Shown: piece after piece, positions 11,243 through 38,449 of the stretch
Numbering within the stretch: the first letter of the stretch is position 1
Layout of the letters: each line of letters starts with the position of its first letter
Source: Raillietiella orientalis
Lineage: Eukaryota
Reading direction: 5' to 3'
Assembly: GCA_036172245.1 (NCBI GenBank)
Contig: JAYWIR010000047.1
Location: forward strand, 124,001 to 188,000
Length of the DNA stretch: 64,000 nt
Position numbers and translations under genes: made by a program
The notes under the pieces: model-generated
The model's input: the letters and a program-made list of their open reading frames with translations, nothing else
What the model was told of the DNA's origin: nothing
The model's database searches: none

Positions 11243-11770
11243 CCCGCGTCGTAGGCCGGCGGTTTACGACGGTGGTCTCCGCGCGTGCCACCATGCGTCA
11301 TGGGTTTGAATACTCCAAAGGAATAGATGCAGTGCGTCGTGGGTCCCGAGTTCACCCCACAAGATGACGCTGGTTGGCCTACATTCATCCGGGTGCAGCA
11401 CTGGTAGCGGTTCAAACCGGATGCCCCCCGATGAGGGCCGGGACAAATGGGAGTTGACCTCCGGGTACTTCCAGAATCATGGAGTGGGAGCTCCCCTTCG
11501 GTTGTGAAGGAGCGGACCCCCATTCCGGGGAGGACCCCTCCGCGTCGAACTGATGGAGTAGGTGTGTCGCCACCACCTCTCCAGGGAGTGCAGAGACGCG
11601 AGCCGATCCCTTCGGGGAAGCTGCGTCCTTCTGAATTTCGGAAGCGTTCTTTCTGGGTTCTCTTCAGAGGAGTAAAAACAGGAGCAAATCCCTCCAAGGG
11701 TCTCTTCGGACAGAATAAGGAAGGAGATTTCCCGTCGGAATTCCCCTTCGGAGAAAACCAGGGTGTAAAG
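11243..11770 (+). mobile_element. tRNA-headed SINE-like element, copy 3, running directly into L1 ORF1
   Basis: B-box-like GGTTTGAATAC (11303-11313) and core CAAGATGACGCT (11360-11371). The body is colinear with the copy at 32830-33657 up to CGGAGAAAACCAGGGTG. Confidence 0.6.
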
Positions 11771-12673
11771 GAGGAAGAGTTGGAAGGTCTCTCCGTGCTT
11801 AGTGGGGGTCAGCGGGTGGAGCGGACTTGCAGGGATGCAAGCCTGGCTCAGCGCCTGTTGAATACCCCCATTACGCTGGAGGGCAGAAAACTCTTCCCGG
11901 TGACTAAGGACCGCTCATTAGTAGCGCACCTCACTGGAGTTACCTTCCGCATGTTGAAAACCGGGGTGCAGAAGGAACTCAGTAAGTACGGCACAGTAAA
12001 CGCGCTCTGGACCAAGCCCAACGTCTTCCAAACCTATGGAAGACTGTTCAGTGACATGGCCGCAGCGCGTGTAACCGTGCACGAAAACGGCGGGCTACCC
12101 CACAAGCTCGACATCGGCAACGAGACGGTCGATGTCTGGTACGTGGGTAAGCCCAAGTACTGTGATGCCACAGGGCACCTGAAAAAACGGTGCTCTCACA
12201 TCCAGTGTTTCCTATGCGGAGAGAAGGGCCACCTCTGGAAAGTGTGCCCAAAGCGTGAAACTATGGCTCCCTCTGCTTTGAAAAAAGCCAAGGGGAAACG
12301 CGCGGAGCAAGCAAAGAAGTCTAAAGAGGCTACTGCAAGGCGTACTCAGAAGCCAGAGCCCGAACCCTCCCAGCAAACGCCGGTCGAGAAAACTCCCGAC
12401 GACGCTGGTGAGAACAAGGGCTGGCGGACGGCGAAGCCGAAAAAAGTTAAAAGAACTGAGGTCCCGAAAGCAGAAGGTGCAGCGAATCCTTTAAATAGGA
12501 AACAGCGCCTCTCATTGCTCCGCGAATGTTCGGTCGCCTTGGAGCGCGTGGGGGCCTTGGAGGCCGCCACCGGGGGAGATATCCCCCTCCTGGTTTGCGT
12601 CGAAGCCGCGATTCTCGAAGGCGAACCCTCTGTGCAAGCAGAGGAGGAGCCGTGCCGAACTCGTCAGCCGTGA
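11447..12673 (+). CDS. L1/Tx1 ORF1 (RRM-like region plus CCHC zinc knuckles); the N-terminal ~105 codons overlap the SINE-like body
   Basis: Open 408-aa frame containing VQKELSKYGTV, VDVWYVGKPKYCDATGHLKKRC and CFLCGEKGHLWKVCP. Confidence 0.75.
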   Translation: MGVDLRVLPESWSGSSPSVVKERTPIPGRTPPRRTDGVGVSPPPLQGVQRREPIPSGKLRPSEFRKRSFWVLFRGVKTGANPSKGLFGQNKEGDFPSEFPFGENQGVKEEELEGLSVLSGGQRVERTCRDASLAQRLLNTPITLEGRKLFPVTKDRSLVAHLTGVTFRMLKTGVQKELSKYGTVNALWTKPNVFQTYGRLFSDMAAARVTVHENGGLPHKLDIGNETVDVWYVGKPKYCDATGHLKKRCSHIQCFLCGEKGHLWKVCPKRETMAPSALKKAKGKRAEQAKKSKEATARRTQKPEPEPSQQTPVEKTPDDAGENKGWRTAKPKKVKRTEVPKAEGAANPLNRKQRLSLLRECSVALERVGALEAATGGDIPLLVCVEAAILEGEPSVQAEEEPCRTRQP

Positions 12674-13073
12674 GATCCCGGCACGAAAGGCCTTGAGAAG
12701 GCCGACCGCGGTCAAGGCACCTTAAAGCAGGTGATCCTGATCCTGATCCGTATGCCGGAAGTGCGTCCTCCTCCGCGGAGGCGCCTCCAAAGAAGACGGG
12801 ACGGAATTCCAAGAATCCAAGGAGGCGCATCCCTACCAAGAAGGAGGGGAACGCACCGGCAGCCGAGAGGGAAGCCGGCAGCGTGGGAACGGAGGAAGGG
12901 ATTTTCCGACTTCCACCAATGCAGTCTGCTGAGGAATCGGCCCCCATGGAGGAGGGAGAACCGGTGAGCGATGCACCCCCTCCTCCATCCGTCCCGCCCG
13001 ATCAGGTGGCGGGAGTCCCATTGCCACTTTCCCAGGAATAACACCTGGGCTTGCCTGTCGCCGTCGGATACGC

Positions 13074-13883
13074 GTGGCCTGTTGGAACGTCAACGGGCTG
13101 CGCGACGACGGCAACAGATGGGACACAGCCGCCACCCTGCGTGACTTCGACCTGGCGCTCCTGCAGGAGATCCACGTGATCACCGCGGAGAACGCCCAGG
13201 AGATCGAGAGGATCGCAGGGGGGCGGTTGCTGTGGCAATGCGGCGCCCGCAACACCTGTGGCGTCGCGTTTTTCCTGAAGCCAGCTGTCGACGCTGCCGT
13301 GAAGGGCGTGCGCTTCGACGGCGCCGGTCGGGTCGGCCAGCTGATTCTCAGATGTTCCAACACGATCGACCTCCTCGTCACAAACGTGTACGCCCCAAGC
13401 GGTCCTCTAAGGTACGAGGAGAGTAAGGCGTTCCTGGAAACCTTGAAGCGCGACTGGCTGGTGGAAGCGAACGTGCATAGGGCTCACCTGATTGCTGGCG
13501 ATTTCAACCTTCGCCTGCTCTCAGGTGATCTCCACACACAGGAACGGACGGCTAACGATTTGTGCGCCGCTATGCGCACGCGCAACTTGCTAGGGGACCT
13601 CCCGGAAATGGTCAACAGCATCGACCTCGTCTTCCTCGACGACGACCCGTGCCCACGGGTCGGCAGACGGGGGAAACTTCCGTCGGAGCTGTCTGACCAT
13701 TTCCGGTTGATTTTCGAGGTATGCCCGTGCGATAAGGACCCCCCATCCAGGGCGTGGCGTCTGTCTGGCGACTGGACGCGATTCTCAGGTACGAAACGAC
13801 ACCTTTGCCAATTCCTGAGAGGCGTCACCCTCCAGAATCTCGCCGACTGGAACCGCATGAAGGCCTTGGTTCGCAAGTTCTGA
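13074..13883 (+). pseudogene. ORF2 apurinic-like (APE) endonuclease domain
   Basis: Motifs WNVNGL, LQEIH, NVYAP, GDFN, IDLVF and SDH; the frame ends at a premature stop before the RT. Confidence 0.9.
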
Positions 13884-30192: not shown

Positions 30193-30831
30193 TCATGTGA
30201 CTTCACGAAACCACGTCAGCGTCCACTTGAACGATTCCTCCACCTCATACGTTTTGGAAATGTACTCATACATTCGAGAAGTCCAACTACCCATTTCAGA
30301 CAGCGTCCATGGATACTCAAAAGCCGGAACATTTCGGTACGAAACCTTCAATTCTAAACCTCCTTGTATCCTTCCAGACTCAGATAAATCCATCGTCATA
30401 GGCTCTATAGTGTAGCGGATTCCTACTAACTTCGCCTCCAGAAAAAAATTCTTCAGTTCAGATTAATGTCATCTTTCCAACCATTTATCCATTGACAGCG
30501 AGTCAGTCTGCTCTATAAACATACAGCTCGCATTGAACTTGCCGCGGGTTGCTACCTTCACCAAACAGTAGAAGTGGCCTTGCACTATTTCCTCCCTCGA
30601 TACCTCTCGCTTTGTGGATACATTCTTACAGCCAGTGCTCAAAATCCTACTCTTCTTTGCATATCTCCTTTTCTTTGCACATTTCCTGCTTCTCTTTCTA
30701 TACACTCTCCTTTTGGCCGACAATTTGGGCTTTTTTATTTTCCTTCCATCTTCAAATCCTTTCTTTTTCCGAGCTACGACCGCCAAACTCCTCTCTTTCG
30801 GACGCTTGATGCCCTACTGACTTACCTTCAT
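30193..30831 (-). pseudogene. cap: Viral capsid-like gene, N-terminal part
   Basis: A single frame from ATG 30831 with three internal stops. The Arg/Lys-rich arm (KRRVYRKRSRKCAKKRRYAKKSR) is followed by ELKNFFLEAKLVGIRYTIEP, which resembles the jelly-roll strand motif of CRESS capsids. It is divergent from rep across the origin. Confidence 0.75.
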
Positions 30832-31059
30832 TAGTTACTCTTTGTAAAATACCCCTTCCTGTTTTACTCCGTCACGATTTCATTAAGCACCTCATTACCT
30901 GATCACGTCTAACTGCGCACGCGATCCTTATCTTCACCTTGTCACGGTATCGTTTACATTCCACTCTGACGCATCCACTCAATTAATCATTCCCTCATCC
31001 ACATTCCCTTCACACGTTCCAGCACTTCTACCTTATCAGACTTTCGTTAATCTCAAGAC

Positions 31060-31110
31060 CTAGATAAGGGCCATCTGGGTAATACTATTAGCTAGATGGC
31101 CCTTGTCCAG
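31060..31110 (-). promoter_or_regulatory. Rolling-circle replication origin stem-loop with nonanucleotide TAGTATTAC
   Basis: Arms CTAGATAAGGGCCATCTGG (31060-78) and CTAGATGGCCCTTGTCCAG (31092-110) form a 19-bp imperfect stem. The 13-nt loop reads CTAATAGTATTAC on the minus strand (nonamer 31087-31079). Confidence 0.95.
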
Positions 31111-31113
31111 ATC

Positions 31114-31121
31114 TATATAAA
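31114..31121 (+). promoter_or_regulatory. Candidate TATA box of viral rep
   Basis: TATATAAA immediately after the origin hairpin, 60 nt upstream of the rep ATG. Confidence 0.6.
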
Positions 31122-31180
31122 CTCTGCGTCTGATAGCCTTTACCAGTCTTACTTTCAAGCCTCTGCAAATTCATTTAAAA

Positions 31181-32013
31181 ATGCCAAACGCCAACTACTC
31201 CTCCTGGTGCATTACCCTCGATAATTGGAACCAAGATGAGCTGCAATCCATCAAATCATGGTGAAGATAACACGTAACCTTCTCCATTCTCGCAAAAGAG
31301 GAAGTAACCAATGGTACTCCGCACATACAAGGATACATGCAGTTGCATAAACCTCGGACACTGCCCCAACTGCTACGACCCCCCTTTTTACGAGAACCTC
31401 CGGAACATGCTAAGGGAAACCCCCTATCGAACCTGAACTACTGCAGAAAGAAAGATCCAGTAAACTCATCCAGACGGGACATGATGAACGTTATATTCTA
31501 GAAAATCACATGAACTTTTACATCAGACACATTGCGTTCATCAAGGAATGCTTTTGTCTACATAGAGCGACAAACCATTCAAATCCTATGGAAAACCTTC
31601 GCCTACGAAAATGACCAGTTGGCATTCTCGAGCATCTCAGGAGACCACCTCATTCAAGGAACATGTTATGGGTCAAAGACGAGAGAGGCAACGACGGCAA
31701 AACCACATTTGCCAAATACTCGTTCCCCGAAGATCTGCCATCTACCTACTGTCTTGTAAAAAGGCTGACACGGCTCACCTCTACAATGGAGAACCAATTA
31801 GCGTTGTGGACCTCACCAGAGATGATCGAGAGATAGCACAATCAAGAGTTTGAAGAACGGAATAATTTCTGATCCTAAGTACCAAATATCGATGAAATAC
31901 TTCAACACACCCCAGATCATAGGTATGGCTAACTGGAACCCAGACGGTCTTCAGATAGATGGCGAATTATTTTGAAATACCAAGAGGAAGAAAGCCAATT
32001 TCTGCATTGGTGA
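31181..32013 (+). pseudogene. rep: CRESS-DNA virus replication initiator protein (HUH endonuclease plus SF3 helicase), disrupted
   Basis: Motif I WCITLDN (~31205), motif II PHIQG (31319-33), motif III YCRK (31439-50), Walker A GNDGKT (31687-704), Walker B VVDLTR (~31803), LKNGIISDPKY, motif C GMAN (~31922) and Arg finger SDRW. Stops at 31262 and 31268 plus several frameshifts. Confidence 0.93.
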
Positions 32014-32069: not shown

Positions 32070-32089
32070 AATAAATTCTTTACTTTATT
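32070..32089. terminator. Convergent polyadenylation signals of rep and cap
   Basis: AATAAA on + at 32070-75 and on - at 32089-84; the latter overlaps the TAA that ends the capsid-like frame. Confidence 0.65.
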
Positions 32090-32416
32090 GTTGCATCTCC
32101 TTATCTCTTATTCCTCTAAACATTCGACACATTCTTCTTATTCTGAAAAGAGGTGCATCTCTTTTCAACAGTCCTTCTGTTGGATAAACGCCTTGTCTGC
32201 AATCAACTTTCAGTTCGTCTGTACATCCATTCCTGGCATGTGCTTCATTATGAAATAATTCCCAAGTTACATCTTCAATGCCGTCTCTCTACTACTATCC
32301 AACTCTATCCATATCGACCTCACTGTTCTCACGTCATATCCTTCTCCGCAATTATCCATTCTTTTCCTGTAAGCAGGCACGTAAAAACTAGCACTTCTCA
32401 CGCTGAAATATATCTT
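32085..32416 (-). pseudogene. cap: Viral capsid-like gene, probable C-terminal part
   Basis: The minus strand reads KIYFSVRSASFYVPAYRK...RSIWIELD and, after a frameshift, ...CRMFRGIRDKEMQQ*, ending at the polyA signal. It has the same strand and composition as the N-terminal piece, as expected if a circle was opened inside cap. Confidence 0.6.
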
Positions 32417-32829
32417 TCCAGCAGAAAGCAAGATCGGTTTCGGACACATGAGGACGCGTCCCTCGGCCCGAAATCCGGAAGGAGGTTTCCCAGCGATCCG
32501 AGATCCCCCCCTGCTTTCCGCTGAGCTCCTCGCGGAAAGGAGGGAGACAGCACTCGGTGGCCACTGGCCTCCGAGGTTACCCACCACCCCTGGGTCGGAG
32601 GCCTCTCGGAGGGCTTCTGGGGAGAGAACATGCGACCGTTGCCGGCATGGGCAGCGGTCCCTGCTTCCCGCTGGGTGATCGCCTTGGTGCCCCCCCTCAA
32701 GAGTCCGTTTGCTCTCGGGCAGAGAAAGATCCTTCGTCCTGTCGTCCTCGCAGATGCGAGGGCCCCTCGGACAGCTCTCAGAGGGGGACACCCTGTTTTG
32801 TTTCCACGCCTCTCCACCTGAGGCAAGGG

Positions 32830-33657
32830 GGCATAATTCTTCAGGATAGGGCACCCCGGAAGGGGGTTCCGCCCTATAAATCCAGGAAGGGCTCGGAGTC
32901 CGTTCCTCCCACGCTTGGGAAAGGATCCCCCTCGCATGGGGGGATCGCACCTTCCACCCTGGTTGTCTCCGAAGAATAACCCCGAAGGAGAACCTCTCCT
33001 TCCTCATTCTTCCGGAGGAACACCCCCCAATGGGGAGGGGCTGTCGTCTCCATTTCAACTTCTCCGAAGGGAATCCGGAAAGGATCCTCTAGGAATTTAC
33101 TAGGAATTTCTTCTCCGGAGGGAACCCGCAAGGGAACCGCTCCTGTTCACTCCTCTGAAGAGAACCCCGAAGGGACGCTTCTGAAACTCAGAAGGGGCGC
33201 TGCAGCTTCCCGCAGGGAATCGCTCTCGCTTGCTTCCTTGCACTCTTGCACTCTGTGAAGAGGCGACAACTAGGAGGGTAACCCCCGCTTAGGGGGACCC
33301 AGCTCCATCGAACAACTAGGAGAGGTGCCCGCGAGGGCTCCTGCCCCATGTTGAAACCGGAAGGGTACCCCCGCTAAGGGGGTCCGCTCTTTGTTGTACG
33401 ACCGGAGGGGGAACTCCCCACTCCTTGGATTCCCGGAAGGACCCGAAGATCGACTCCCATCATTCCGGCCTTCATCAGAGGCCTCCGGCTTAAACGACCA
33501 CCGGTGCCACGCCCGAATGTCTCGGCCAACCAGCGCCATTGCAGGAGAAACGAACGGAACCCAACGACGCAGTTGCGTCAGTTTCTGCCAGAGTATTCGA
33601 TCCCGCGACGCATGGTGCCACGCGCGGAAGCCTTAACCACAAGACCTCCGACGCGGG
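32830..33657 (-). mobile_element. tRNA-headed SINE-like element, copy 5
   Basis: The reverse complement begins CCCGCGTCGGAGGTCTTGTGGTTAAGG...GGATCGAATAC (B-box-like, 33603-33593). It matches copy 3 at the head and copy 4 at the tail. Confidence 0.6.
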
Positions 33658-34912: not shown

Positions 34913-36419
34913 TCAAATCCCGAAAGATATTACAAATAAATATACATATATATACATCTTGATATATAAATTTATATGGGGATTAAAGTACAGATTAGTG
35001 CATATTGTAAAGATTATATATCTACAGATAGACTGGAATACAAATTTATTTTGATCTACATATTTACTGATACTCATCAACATACATATTATCAATACAA
35101 TTAATAGGAGGCCTATTACATATATTTATACATCGATTGATGGATAGATAAATAGAAATTGTGAAAATTAGAAACAAATGAATACATATGGTATATGTAT
35201 ATTAATGCACAAATTGATATATAAATCAACATTGAGAGGAATACCCTAATTTATTTTAACTAACATAGTTTTACATTTTAACTAACATTTATTTTAACAT
35301 ACATAGTAACTGATATTTATTAATCTAATACTATTAACAGTAATATTGTTTTAGCATATATATATTTATTAAGGTATATTATTAATATAATGAATGTGCT
35401 TTTCATATATCAATACATACATTCGTATATACATTAACATATATCATAAAGATTATAAAAGATGCATACGTGTTTATTAGTATATGCATCTCTATACGGA
35501 TGAACATATGAGAATATATTCATGTGTTTACTATAGATATTAACACAACTAATTATATGTTTACCATGCACATTTATGTATGAATTAATGTCTAGATAGA
35601 AATATATTATAAAGTTTGTAAAAAAATAATGCATATGTTTATTATGTACATTAATATACATATTTACATATGGATTAATATATACATTGATTTTAACATA
35701 CATACTTATTAATGTAATTTCTAATACGCACTCAATACATACATTGTAAATATAGTATAAATGCATATGTTCATTATGTACATTTACATATATCTATAAT
35801 AAATGTAAACTGAATGAACATATCAACACACATGAACATATGAACACAATGTTTTCAAAATTAAAAAAAAAATAAAAATGAATGATGACATTTAAAAATA
35901 GCAGTAAATAACAAAAAAGATCAACAAATTAAAAAGGCAAAAAAGAAAATTTTGTATTTGATATTCCCATCACGTCCAACAATCAGCATGTGGCACTTCC
36001 TCTACGAATGACGAATTCCTTTGTCGGGATTTTGTTCGATAGATACATACGCATGTTTAGAATCCGATATTCATACATCATTTCACATATACTCATTATA
36101 TGCATACAAATATGCTGCTATGTATGAGAAACATATATATTTTCCTTTGCTATAATCTTTATAATATATATCAATAAAATATATTAATAAGTATTATTAA
36201 TTATACCAAAAAATATTTTTGATAAAGTAGATTTGAATATTAACCATGATGCAAATATATGCATAGATATATATTAATGTACATAATAAGGATATATATT
36301 TCTCTTTCTTTATAATCTTTATAATAGATATTAATCCCTATGGCAATCCATATATAATTTATATAATTGTATACATAATTAGTACGTATATCTGCTTTTA
36401 GAGTCCTTAGGGATTTTGA
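34913..36419. repeat. Extremely AT-rich 1.5 kb insert with ~110-bp imperfect terminal inverted repeats (non-autonomous DNA transposon-like)
   Basis: Left end TCAAATCCC...TATATAAATTTATATGG...TATTGTAAAGATTATA versus reverse-complemented right end TCAAAATCCC...TATATAAATTATATATGG...TATTATAAAGATTATA. Internal CATATGTTTATTATGTACATT-type repeats and abrupt GC edges. Confidence 0.55.
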
Positions 36420-38449
36420 TTGGCACTGCCTCTCCTCCTCCCACCACACCATCATCATCATCCTTATCATTGCCATTATCCTCGTCTCCCTCACCCTCAT
36501 TCCCTTCCCTATCCCCGCTCTTATAACATCATCATCATTCCCTTCTCAACATCGTCGCCCTCATCCCCACACTTCTCTCTCCTCCTCATCCTCCACGGCG
36601 ATGCCCGTGGAATCTGCCCTCCCAATCGCTTGCTCCACCACGCCGCCGAGAGCTACAGCCTCGGAATAACGGAATTCCCCGAGGAGGTCGCTCCTCCTGC
36701 CATCCTTCCGCCTTCTCCCCGGCCTCTCCCTTGTTCGCTTCCCCTGCCCTCAGTGAGACCCGGCCATCCGAGCCTCGCGCCAACTCTGTCCCCTTTGAAC
36801 TCCCCAGGACGAACCGGGAGAAAAGAGGGCAACAGGGAGGGAAAAGAGGGAGGGAGGGCAACATGACTCGAGGTTCACGCTGCCTCATCTCCTCTGGAAT
36901 GCCAAGGCAGGACGCGACCGCTTCCCCCTCCTAGCTCTTCCTCGCTCTTCTTCCGGATGTCCCTCTACGCAGCCCACTATCCTTGGACCGGAAAGTGTCC
37001 CATCCCCTCCACGGCGTCCATCCGTGAGAGACTGGGAGATGTGCTCCTGCTAGCGACCTCCATGCGTCCTTTCGCAAGCGACCATCTTCCCCTCTCCCCC
37101 TCCTCCCCGGTGCTTCCTCCTTGATCTGTCTTACTCCTCACCCTCCATCTTGCCCCTTGCAGGAAGCGCCGAAGGTCGCGAGCTCGTGGGACAGCCCGTG
37201 TCTCCTTTCCTAACCTGGAGGCAACTGAAGCGACACGAAAAGAGCCAAGAAGCTGCTCGAGGAGGAGGTCCAAGGAGGGGCTACGCTTGGAGGAGAGAGA
37301 GGGTGAAGGAGGCGATGGCGGCTTCTGGTCCCGACTTTGTGCCTACCCTCCTCCCTTCCTCCTCCTCCTCCTCCTCTCCCTTACTCTTCCTGCGCGACTT
37401 CTCGGCTGCTTTCGTGTTGCGCCCTCCGCCTCCAGGCTCGAGGTCGAGGCTCAGCCTGTCCCCCACGGCGAGTTCCGTCAGGAAGGACAGCGAAGAAGAC
37501 AAGCAAGGGAAGGAACGATGCTGTACCCATTGACTGTTTCGCTTCGAGGTTGTCCCTTCCCCCTCCTCACCGAGACGCAGAGGGACAGGAGGCCTGCGAT
37601 TCCCCTGATCAGATCTCCCGGGTTCCTCCTGGAGTAGGGAACTCCTCGGAGCGCCTCCGGATGAGGCGAGACACTTCCGAGTTTCCTCCGGATTCCTTGC
37701 GAGCTGAGGATTGGGATTTCCTTCTTGCAGCGGAGGAGGTGGGGAACCGGTTCGGAGAGAGAGAGCACTGGGGGCAGTCTCCAGAGCTTCCCGTACCCTC
37801 TCCCTGCCTGCCCCCCTCCAACGCTCCGCTCTGTTTGCTCCGGAAGAGGCGGTTCTTCCCCCCCCCTCTGCCCTCCTTCCCCTCTCCTTTCTTGGTCCTG
37901 GAAAGCCGTTCGTCCGTCCTGTCACGCTGCCGCCTCACCGCACGCTCGGCTGGCGCGCACAGCCCTACCGAGGCGACTTCCGGACTCTCCTTGACGCCTC
38001 CGCCGGCTCCCGCGGAAGGAAATGGCACGCGCGACCTCCCCGAGGAATGCTCGGCCCTCGACGGCTGCCTCCCTAGGGCCCTCCACCTTCCTTTGCGCCA
38101 GATGGAAATTTTGTCCTCCCGCGTTAGGGAGACCGGGCAGCGCTACCCCTACTCGTCTCCCGCTGGAACCCAGTTCGCGTCGACCGCCTCTCCAGGAGCG
38201 GGCTGGACGTCCTCTGGTGGTCACCCACCTCGAACACTGGGCAGGTCGGCACTGGGGAGGAGGAAACAAGGGTATTGCGCGCCTTGTTCCGTCCTCCTCA
38301 CTTACAGCAGGGGAACGGGGGTGGCGTGGCTTAGCAGCGCGGGACCGGCAGACTTGGGAGGGAGAAGGGAGAGGTGCGCAGGTTCCGCGTGACCATGACG
38401 ACGACGGCGCGCATCGGATCTCCCCCCTCCCCTTCCCTCTCTCTCCTTC

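Follow-up and report, generated by a model that had tools for sequence, protein, structure and literature searches.

The 64-kb window analysed here, part of contig C47 of a 210-Mb eukaryotic genome, contains the remains, embedded in the chromosome and no longer viable, of a small circular Rep-encoding single-stranded DNA (CRESS) virus of the Cressdnaviricota. The copy probably stems from an unnamed, nanovirus-related (Mulpavirales-like) Rep lineage, whose members would have worked like the Anicreviridae (formerly CRESS4) and other type II CRESS viruses. It is not a member of the Circoviridae and, judged by motifs and genome layout, not of the Nanoviridae or Smacoviridae. What is new is a relative of known viruses and not a new kind of hybrid, the body plan being already normal for the Anicreviridae.

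The element extends from about position 30286 to about 32410 and is near unit length, representing a circle of ~2.1 kb opened inside the cap gene, with about 25 positions of the capsid profile left without a match at the opening. It forms an AT-richer island amid GC-rich DNA. The range 30831-32013 given in the first-pass annotation covers part of the element but omits the body of cap (to about 30286) and a second cap piece (32088-32410). Stops and frame changes interrupt both rep and cap, and hence no present function is assigned to either gene. This copy ranks among the more decayed members of the family found in the genome and is unique there, the next DNA match being 68-71% identical. The right flank carries a high-copy host repeat that is not viral (32788..32997), as judged by DNA matches in the same genome (1298 first-look candidates, of which the 40 scored matched at 82-91% identity, self excluded). 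No clear target-site duplication was found, the longest word common to both edges being 8 nt. Among public sequencing runs, one DNA run with a small share and no RNA run was listed as holding the element, and four 151-nt pieces were identical to it, none of them across a junction. The viral genes are decayed and, as assembled, continuous with the chromosomal contig, as in an endogenous CRESS element.

Two other features were observed in the window. A 1.5-kb island of about 22% GC (34920-36420) lies within GC-rich DNA and includes long inverted repeats (35413-35459/36309-36355 and 35621-35671/36257-36307), and the frames at 11435-13883 recall a non-LTR retrotransposon in encoding an endonuclease domain (PF03372, E 1.5e-11) along with a weak zinc knuckle.

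The rep gene is read on the plus strand. The part encoding the HUH nuclease (31181..31459) includes the motifs WCITLDN, PHIQG and YCRK and two in-frame stops; the 93 N-terminal codons match PF02407 (E 7.6e-8), and this part is 53% identical to that of the sister copy L014. The middle part (31460..31665) has one in-frame stop, and about 100 nt were lost near 31460. The SF3 helicase part (31666..32013) retains five motifs distributed over three frames, namely Walker A LWVKDERGNDGKT (31666-31704), Walker B VVDLTR (31803-31820), the KNG..KY motif LKNGIISDPKY (31850-31882), motif C GMANWNPD (31922-31945) and SDRW (31951-31962). All five motifs quoted in the first-pass annotation are therefore present, but they do not belong to one intact gene, as four frame changes, three in-frame stops and the deletion of about 100 nt have broken the window Rep. 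The helicase pieces alone matched no Pfam family, and the open frame of L014 (Rep P0004) was used as the query in place of the broken Rep. The motif ‘MAN’ was rejected as a nanovirus marker, given that M occupies this site in only 3 of 19 genome copies, the others having F (13), S (1) or a gap (2).

The cap gene lies on the minus strand in two pieces. The 5' part (30286..30831) encodes an Arg/Lys-rich N-terminus and is broken by three in-frame stops, and its segment 30286-30717 matches positions 9-151 (iE 1.4e-21) of a 296-position profile built from 37 sister-capsid frames of the same genome. The 3' part (32088..32410), in two frames, converges on the end of rep and matches positions 177-269 (iE 6.6e-13) and 244-289 (iE 1.7e-6). 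Cap-like matches in the same genome number 25 at E<=1, self included, and the window cap alone matched no Pfam family. The modelled sister capsid points to a circovirus-class jelly-roll, an assignment at the level of fold class only. Its predicted structure (pLDDT 56, pTM 0.56) had the capsid of BFDV as the best PDB match (E 3.3e-6, TM 0.44), and in BFVD it retrieved CRESS and cyclovirus capsids, with an anicrevirus capsid at rank 50. The Atlas clusters agree, a smaco-capsid cluster appearing only as the 30th of 30. A single-sequence capsid fold was set aside (pLDDT 31). At the sequence level, the sister capsid matches PF02443 below the cut-off (E 6e-6, 27 bits against a cut-off of 36), with 4 of 13 members matching at E<=1, and two of the three named anicrevirus capsids likewise match this family below the cut-off (5e-6 and 1e-7). 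None of 1750 candidates was a sequence relative of the sister capsid, nothing useful was found in the PDB by sequence or profile, and none of 52 matches to its pattern in JGI metagenomes held.

Between the divergent ATGs at 30831 (-) and 31181 (+) lies the 5' intergenic region (30832..31180), which holds the origin stem-loop (31056..31114, minus strand). The underlying inverted repeat (31056-31114) has arms of 29 nt and carries the nonamer TAGTATTAC in its loop, at 31079-31087, and the first-pass assignment of the nonamer to the minus, cap-sense strand between the divergent ATGs was borne out. This is the sole exact match within the window, but a search tolerating one mismatch gives 6 matches where 2.6 are expected, and hence the nonamer alone proves little. 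Folded as single-stranded DNA, the hairpin has an energy of -14.2 kcal/mol (z -3.8), and none of 200 shuffles was as stable. Among the 30 best Rep loci of the genome, 20 have a nonamer no more than 250 nt upstream of Rep, in every case on the strand opposite Rep, and 13 of those 20 also keep a divergent cap. Cycloviruses, too, have their origin nonamer between divergent genes and on the cap strand. However, 80 IMG/VR relatives with the same helicase type differ in this respect, 26 having the nonamer on the strand opposite Rep and 37 on that of Rep, with no nonamer found in the other 17, which makes origin polarity a poor lineage marker.

At least 76 matches to PF02407 were found in the genome (94 candidates scored), the window copy being one of them, and they are spread over many contigs. 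Of 35 loci, 21 share a stretch of 36-63 nt, AT-rich and bounded by GT..AG, at one and the same offset between the Rep domains, with six loci doubtful and eight having none. It lies about 80 nt after the codon for the motif III tyrosine (loci L012-L041, L049, L059 and L002). As judged by its sequence pattern, this stretch is probably a host-sized intron of the living virus, located between nuclease and helicase. In the window copy, the loss of ~100 nt near 31460 removes the corresponding site, as seen in a DNA alignment with 8 sister copies. Several Rep matches follow one another on the same strand at distances of 1.8-3.8 kb, separated by cap pieces, at C40:320980-323034 (L017 and L028) and on C106, C68, C81 and C4, as if multimers or partial tandem copies had been inserted. 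At two loci on different contigs (L004:1-1108 and L005:1-1962), the helicase half of Rep follows a long, unrelated frame of Cys-, His- and Pro-rich sequence, with which it is continuous or from which a single stop separates it.

Searched against 1.84 billion representatives, Rep P0004 had 13,471 hits; identity over the top 150 is 29-45%, with no named virus close. This agrees with the earlier suggestion of an unnamed group. Names were looked up for 14 of these 150, including the top ten, which comprise a protein annotated as hypothetical (rank 1), Dragonfly larvae associated circular virus-10 (rank 5) and eight unnamed sequences. The rank-1 hit P0189 (MCK5919361.1), a hypothetical protein according to its Methylococcales annotation, has two CRESS4-like helicase domains in tandem and no nuclease, and may be a viral fragment that was wrongly binned or assembled. 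Dragonfly larvae associated circular virus-10, the nearest named virus among the hits looked up, is placed by the NCBI taxonomy in the Anicreviridae, order Mulpavirales, and is one of six CRESS4 rows in the PMC5923481 supplement. Three other CRESS4 rows are Anicreviridae by name and the Rep of the fifth is named Otevirus soksuewis, while the old names of the fifth and sixth rows are filed as unclassified Circoviridae. The best 120 hits listed by a word-based search all carry the same sets of nuclease and helicase motifs. A phage collection yielded one distant Rep with this helicase type, 30% identical, in the 19.6-kb linear record of Pinkberry virus LS07-2018-MD00 (L065, OP947160.1), which was discarded as irrelevant to placement. 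A description of the lineage was not found in the literature searched, which was covered in part, and an earlier report is possible.

Compared by eye with the six CRESS4 rows in the PMC5923481 supplement, the family helicase follows the CRESS4 pattern motif by motif, reading W..D..G..GK, AD..(H/Y)AY.GE..V.FD(L/F)(S/T)R, KNG..S.KY, FANW.P and S.DRW. Motifs like those of CRESS4 are shared by an amesuvirus and by unclassified rows and are thus not exclusive to the Anicreviridae. Further points in common with the Anicreviridae are a monopartite genome of 2.1-2.3 kb with divergent rep and cap, a (T/C)AGTATTAC hairpin on the cap strand, a circovirus-like nuclease and a circovirus-class capsid. In the cluster of Dragonfly larvae associated circular virus-10, the Rep locus L087 has the cap start at 1084 (-), the nonamer at 1145 (-) and the Rep start at 1180 (+), which is the arrangement of the window. 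The three named anicreviruses show the same layout, in which a cap-strand origin goes with a nanovirus-related helicase and with a nuclease and capsid of circovirus-like type. Like the Littorina CRESS4 virus, they are listed as type II in PMC4498126 (Table 1) and PMC6186406 (Table 3), type II being the cyclovirus-like arrangement with the origin on the cap strand, as defined in PMC10142553. Anicreviridae capsids are grouped with those of the Circoviridae in PMC11945456. The traits shared by the Anicreviridae, which are not known to be formal criteria (a monopartite ambisense genome, a cap-strand origin and a circovirus-class capsid), are all present in the family. The first-pass annotation had taken a cap-strand origin together with a nano-type helicase as the sign of a mosaic virus. 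That reading is not supported, since named Anicreviridae share the layout and polarity varies; the apparent mix is an existing body plan. Likewise, the helicase had been described as nanovirus/smacovirus-style, and its motifs match those of CRESS4/Anicreviridae rather than those of nanoviruses or smacoviruses.

Phylogenetic trees were built from ten genome copies, the window copy and nine others spanning the family of at least 76 matches, together with 64 database rows (3 named anicreviruses, 11 look-alikes, 30 other alpha/nano-type and 20 circo-type). Three of nine Anicreviridae genera are represented, nanovirus, alphasatellite, amesuvirus and smacovirus sequences were left out, and circo-type rows (L161, L169, L180 and L182) were labelled by motif and not by name. 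As the model was LG+G4 without mixture, the rows were trimmed to the P0004 columns and similarity played a part in the choice of look-alikes, the deep branches are to be read with caution. The ten copies form one clade in the helicase tree (100/98, 58 rows), the nuclease tree (100/92, 74 rows, with the bootstrap not fully settled) and the full-Rep tree (100/99, 59 rows). The same three subgroups recur in the helicase, full-Rep and 74-row nuclease trees, whereas a 35-row nuclease tree merges two of the three and its inner groups differ partly from those of the helicase tree. Given one clade per domain and the same subgroups, nuclease and helicase mostly descended together within the family, and the window copy is not a private recombinant. 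Nor do the copies nest in one established genus, the outcome that the first-pass annotation had named as counting against its view; they form a clade of their own in the domain and full-Rep trees.

The family helicase groups with full support among alpha/nano-type helicases, apart from the 20 circo-type ones, and the helicase and full-Rep trees both split the family from the circo-type rows (100/100). This placement, together with the absence of the circo-type motifs GP.G.GKS, IIDDF and ITSN, supports the earlier proposal that the virus lies outside the Circoviridae. Cycloviruses resemble the family in the type II layout with its cap-strand origin (PMC10142553), in similar nuclease motifs and in the capsid fold class, but their helicases read GPPG.GKS, IIDDFY and ITSN or ITSN-like (rows in the PMC5923481 supplement), and those of the family do not. 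Nanoviridae and alphasatellites share the broad helicase class (KNG/KD..S.KY, FAN/MAN and S.DR); by motif comparison only, their Reps differ in reading IIWVYGP.GGEGK, FD(I/F/V)PR and S.DRI. The sites of difference from the family, for smacovirus rows as well, are thus the context of Walker A, Walker B and the last motif, as compared by eye. Their rep genes stand alone on a circle (type VII) and their capsids belong to another group, whereas here rep and cap lie on one circle and flank one origin, as they also do in 13 of 30 sister loci. Smacoviridae have a distantly similar helicase, with D(M/L)PR and K(N/D)G..D.RY. However, nine smacovirus rows lack the WCFTLNN/PHLQG/YC.K nuclease set, while the family nuclease matches PF02407 with PHLQG/YC.K, and the smacovirus capsid is larger and of another group.

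Anicreviridae are defined by Rep phylogeny. Membership of a divergent kind, as a new genus-level branch, would explain the layout, nonamer, capsid class and helicase motifs, all as in the CRESS4 rows, and the finding that the nearest named hit is an anicrevirus. A joint clade of the family with 14 anicrevirus-like rows was not rejected for the full Rep (AU p 0.19), nor was one with 10 such rows for the helicase (AU p 0.20). However, in the best full-Rep tree the three named anicreviruses fall in a marked 14-row clade (96/99) that excludes the family, which is set weakly (80/91 and 82/76) beside unnamed environmental Reps, and family Reps are only 33-37% identical to theirs. A family capsid profile run against 473 frames of 161 IMG/VR loci found none of the anicrevirus capsids (best E 0.39). 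The family also differs in its probable short intron, the three named Reps being single open frames, and is known here only from endogenous copies. Membership of the Anicreviridae is therefore not shown, and a new genus within that family is considered unlikely, though it deserves to be kept in view.

The domain trees leave recombination neither shown nor excluded, as the nuclease tree lacks resolution above the family level. A swap older than the family is possible, the origin of the nuclease not being resolved. Under this alternative, the fusion of a nanovirus-related helicase with a circo-type nuclease, from a circovirus, cyclovirus or CRESS2-like donor, would have preceded the spread of the family in the host, with the hybrid passing to all its members. 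The nuclease scores 74-85 bits with circovirus-like Reps and up to 92 with other circo-type Reps, as against 63-71 with the named anicreviruses, although the latter, too, have nucleases that give high scores with circovirus-like ones (82-126 bits) and are interspersed with them in the tree. In the PDB the family nuclease matches circovirus Reps best (E 3e-14), followed at E 5e-5 by the next set of Rep entries; in the Atlas it found no named family beneath the rank of phylum. Most of the best 78 IMG/VR nuclease matches listed have circo-type helicases, with the qualification that the helicase motif classifier left 50 of 77 rows untyped, many of which show IIDDFG by eye. A joint clade with nine anicrevirus-like nucleases was marginally rejected (AU p 0.042; the nine alone, p 0.215, not rejected), and groupings with three circovirus-like (p 0.17), one cyclovirus-like (p 0.27) and two other circo-type nucleases (p 0.35) were not. 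In a tree of 95 columns, however, the family nuclease lacks a resolved place, and no donor was identified. Nuclease and helicase share none of their 24 best hits, but CRESS4 members reach only 0.19-0.23 on the same connectedness measure and are nevertheless treated as a coherent group in PMC5923481. Moreover, the circo-type pool was picked by nuclease likeness and the other pool by whole protein or helicase, so that both rankings are biased and little weight is placed on the connectedness value or on nuclease-only rankings. In favour of a joining, the probable intron sits between the two domains. An old chimeric Rep is regarded as rather improbable, and even a proven old swap would not be unusual, given that ~71% of unclassified Reps are chimeric according to PMC5923481.

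That the element is a product of faulty assembly, or a contaminating free virus merged with the contig, is hardly credible: no reads span the junctions and no target-site duplication beyond an 8-nt word is evident, but several stops and frame changes in both genes would be unbearable for a replicating virus, 76 Rep matches are spread over many contigs, and the copy is unique, with its next DNA match at 68-71%.

The preferred reading remains a dead endogenous copy of a virus that worked like the Anicreviridae and other type II CRESS viruses. CRESS virus Reps nick the nonamer on the packaged strand and unwind the DNA, leading to rolling-circle replication, a scheme outlined in part in PMC5923481. 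By analogy, the cap strand would be the packaged strand of the living virus and carry the hairpin, while Rep would be read from the complementary strand and probably spliced by the host at an intron of roughly 40-60 nt. The HUH domain would nick the nonamer and the SF3 helicase would unwind the template for rolling-circle replication, and a circovirus-type jelly-roll capsid would package the circle of roughly 2.1 kb. One such circle, opened inside cap, would then have been joined to repeat-rich host DNA, presumably through chance capture of a broken circle, and have decayed there. The lineage appears to have entered the host genome many times, and nuclease, helicase, capsid type and origin polarity seem to have travelled together through its sampled history.

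According to PMC6186406 and PMC9615429, endogenous CRESS elements (CEV/CVe) of invertebrates and protists likewise comprise multiple Rep insertions per genome, spread over the Rep tree. However, up to 19 per invertebrate host are cited in PMC6186406, whereas at least 76 Rep matches are present here, many with origin and cap. A more far-reaching interpretation is doubtful, namely that the copies represent an unnamed cressdnavirus lineage of family rank with a spliced Rep, itself an ancient fusion of circo-type nuclease and nanovirus-related helicase at the site of the intron, with a capsid having no sequence relative in the collections searched and with dozens of separate insertions tying it to one eukaryotic host.

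The claim of a mosaic adds little, as the same trait set occurs in named Anicreviridae. CRESS viruses with nanovirus-related Reps are known mostly from samples of the environment or of whole animals, and their host is not proven. The Rep insertions found here, at least 76 in number and many with origin and capsid, tie one such lineage to a specific eukaryote. The family of copies, rather than this copy by itself, allows the co-divergence of Rep and Cap and the history of the intron to be studied.
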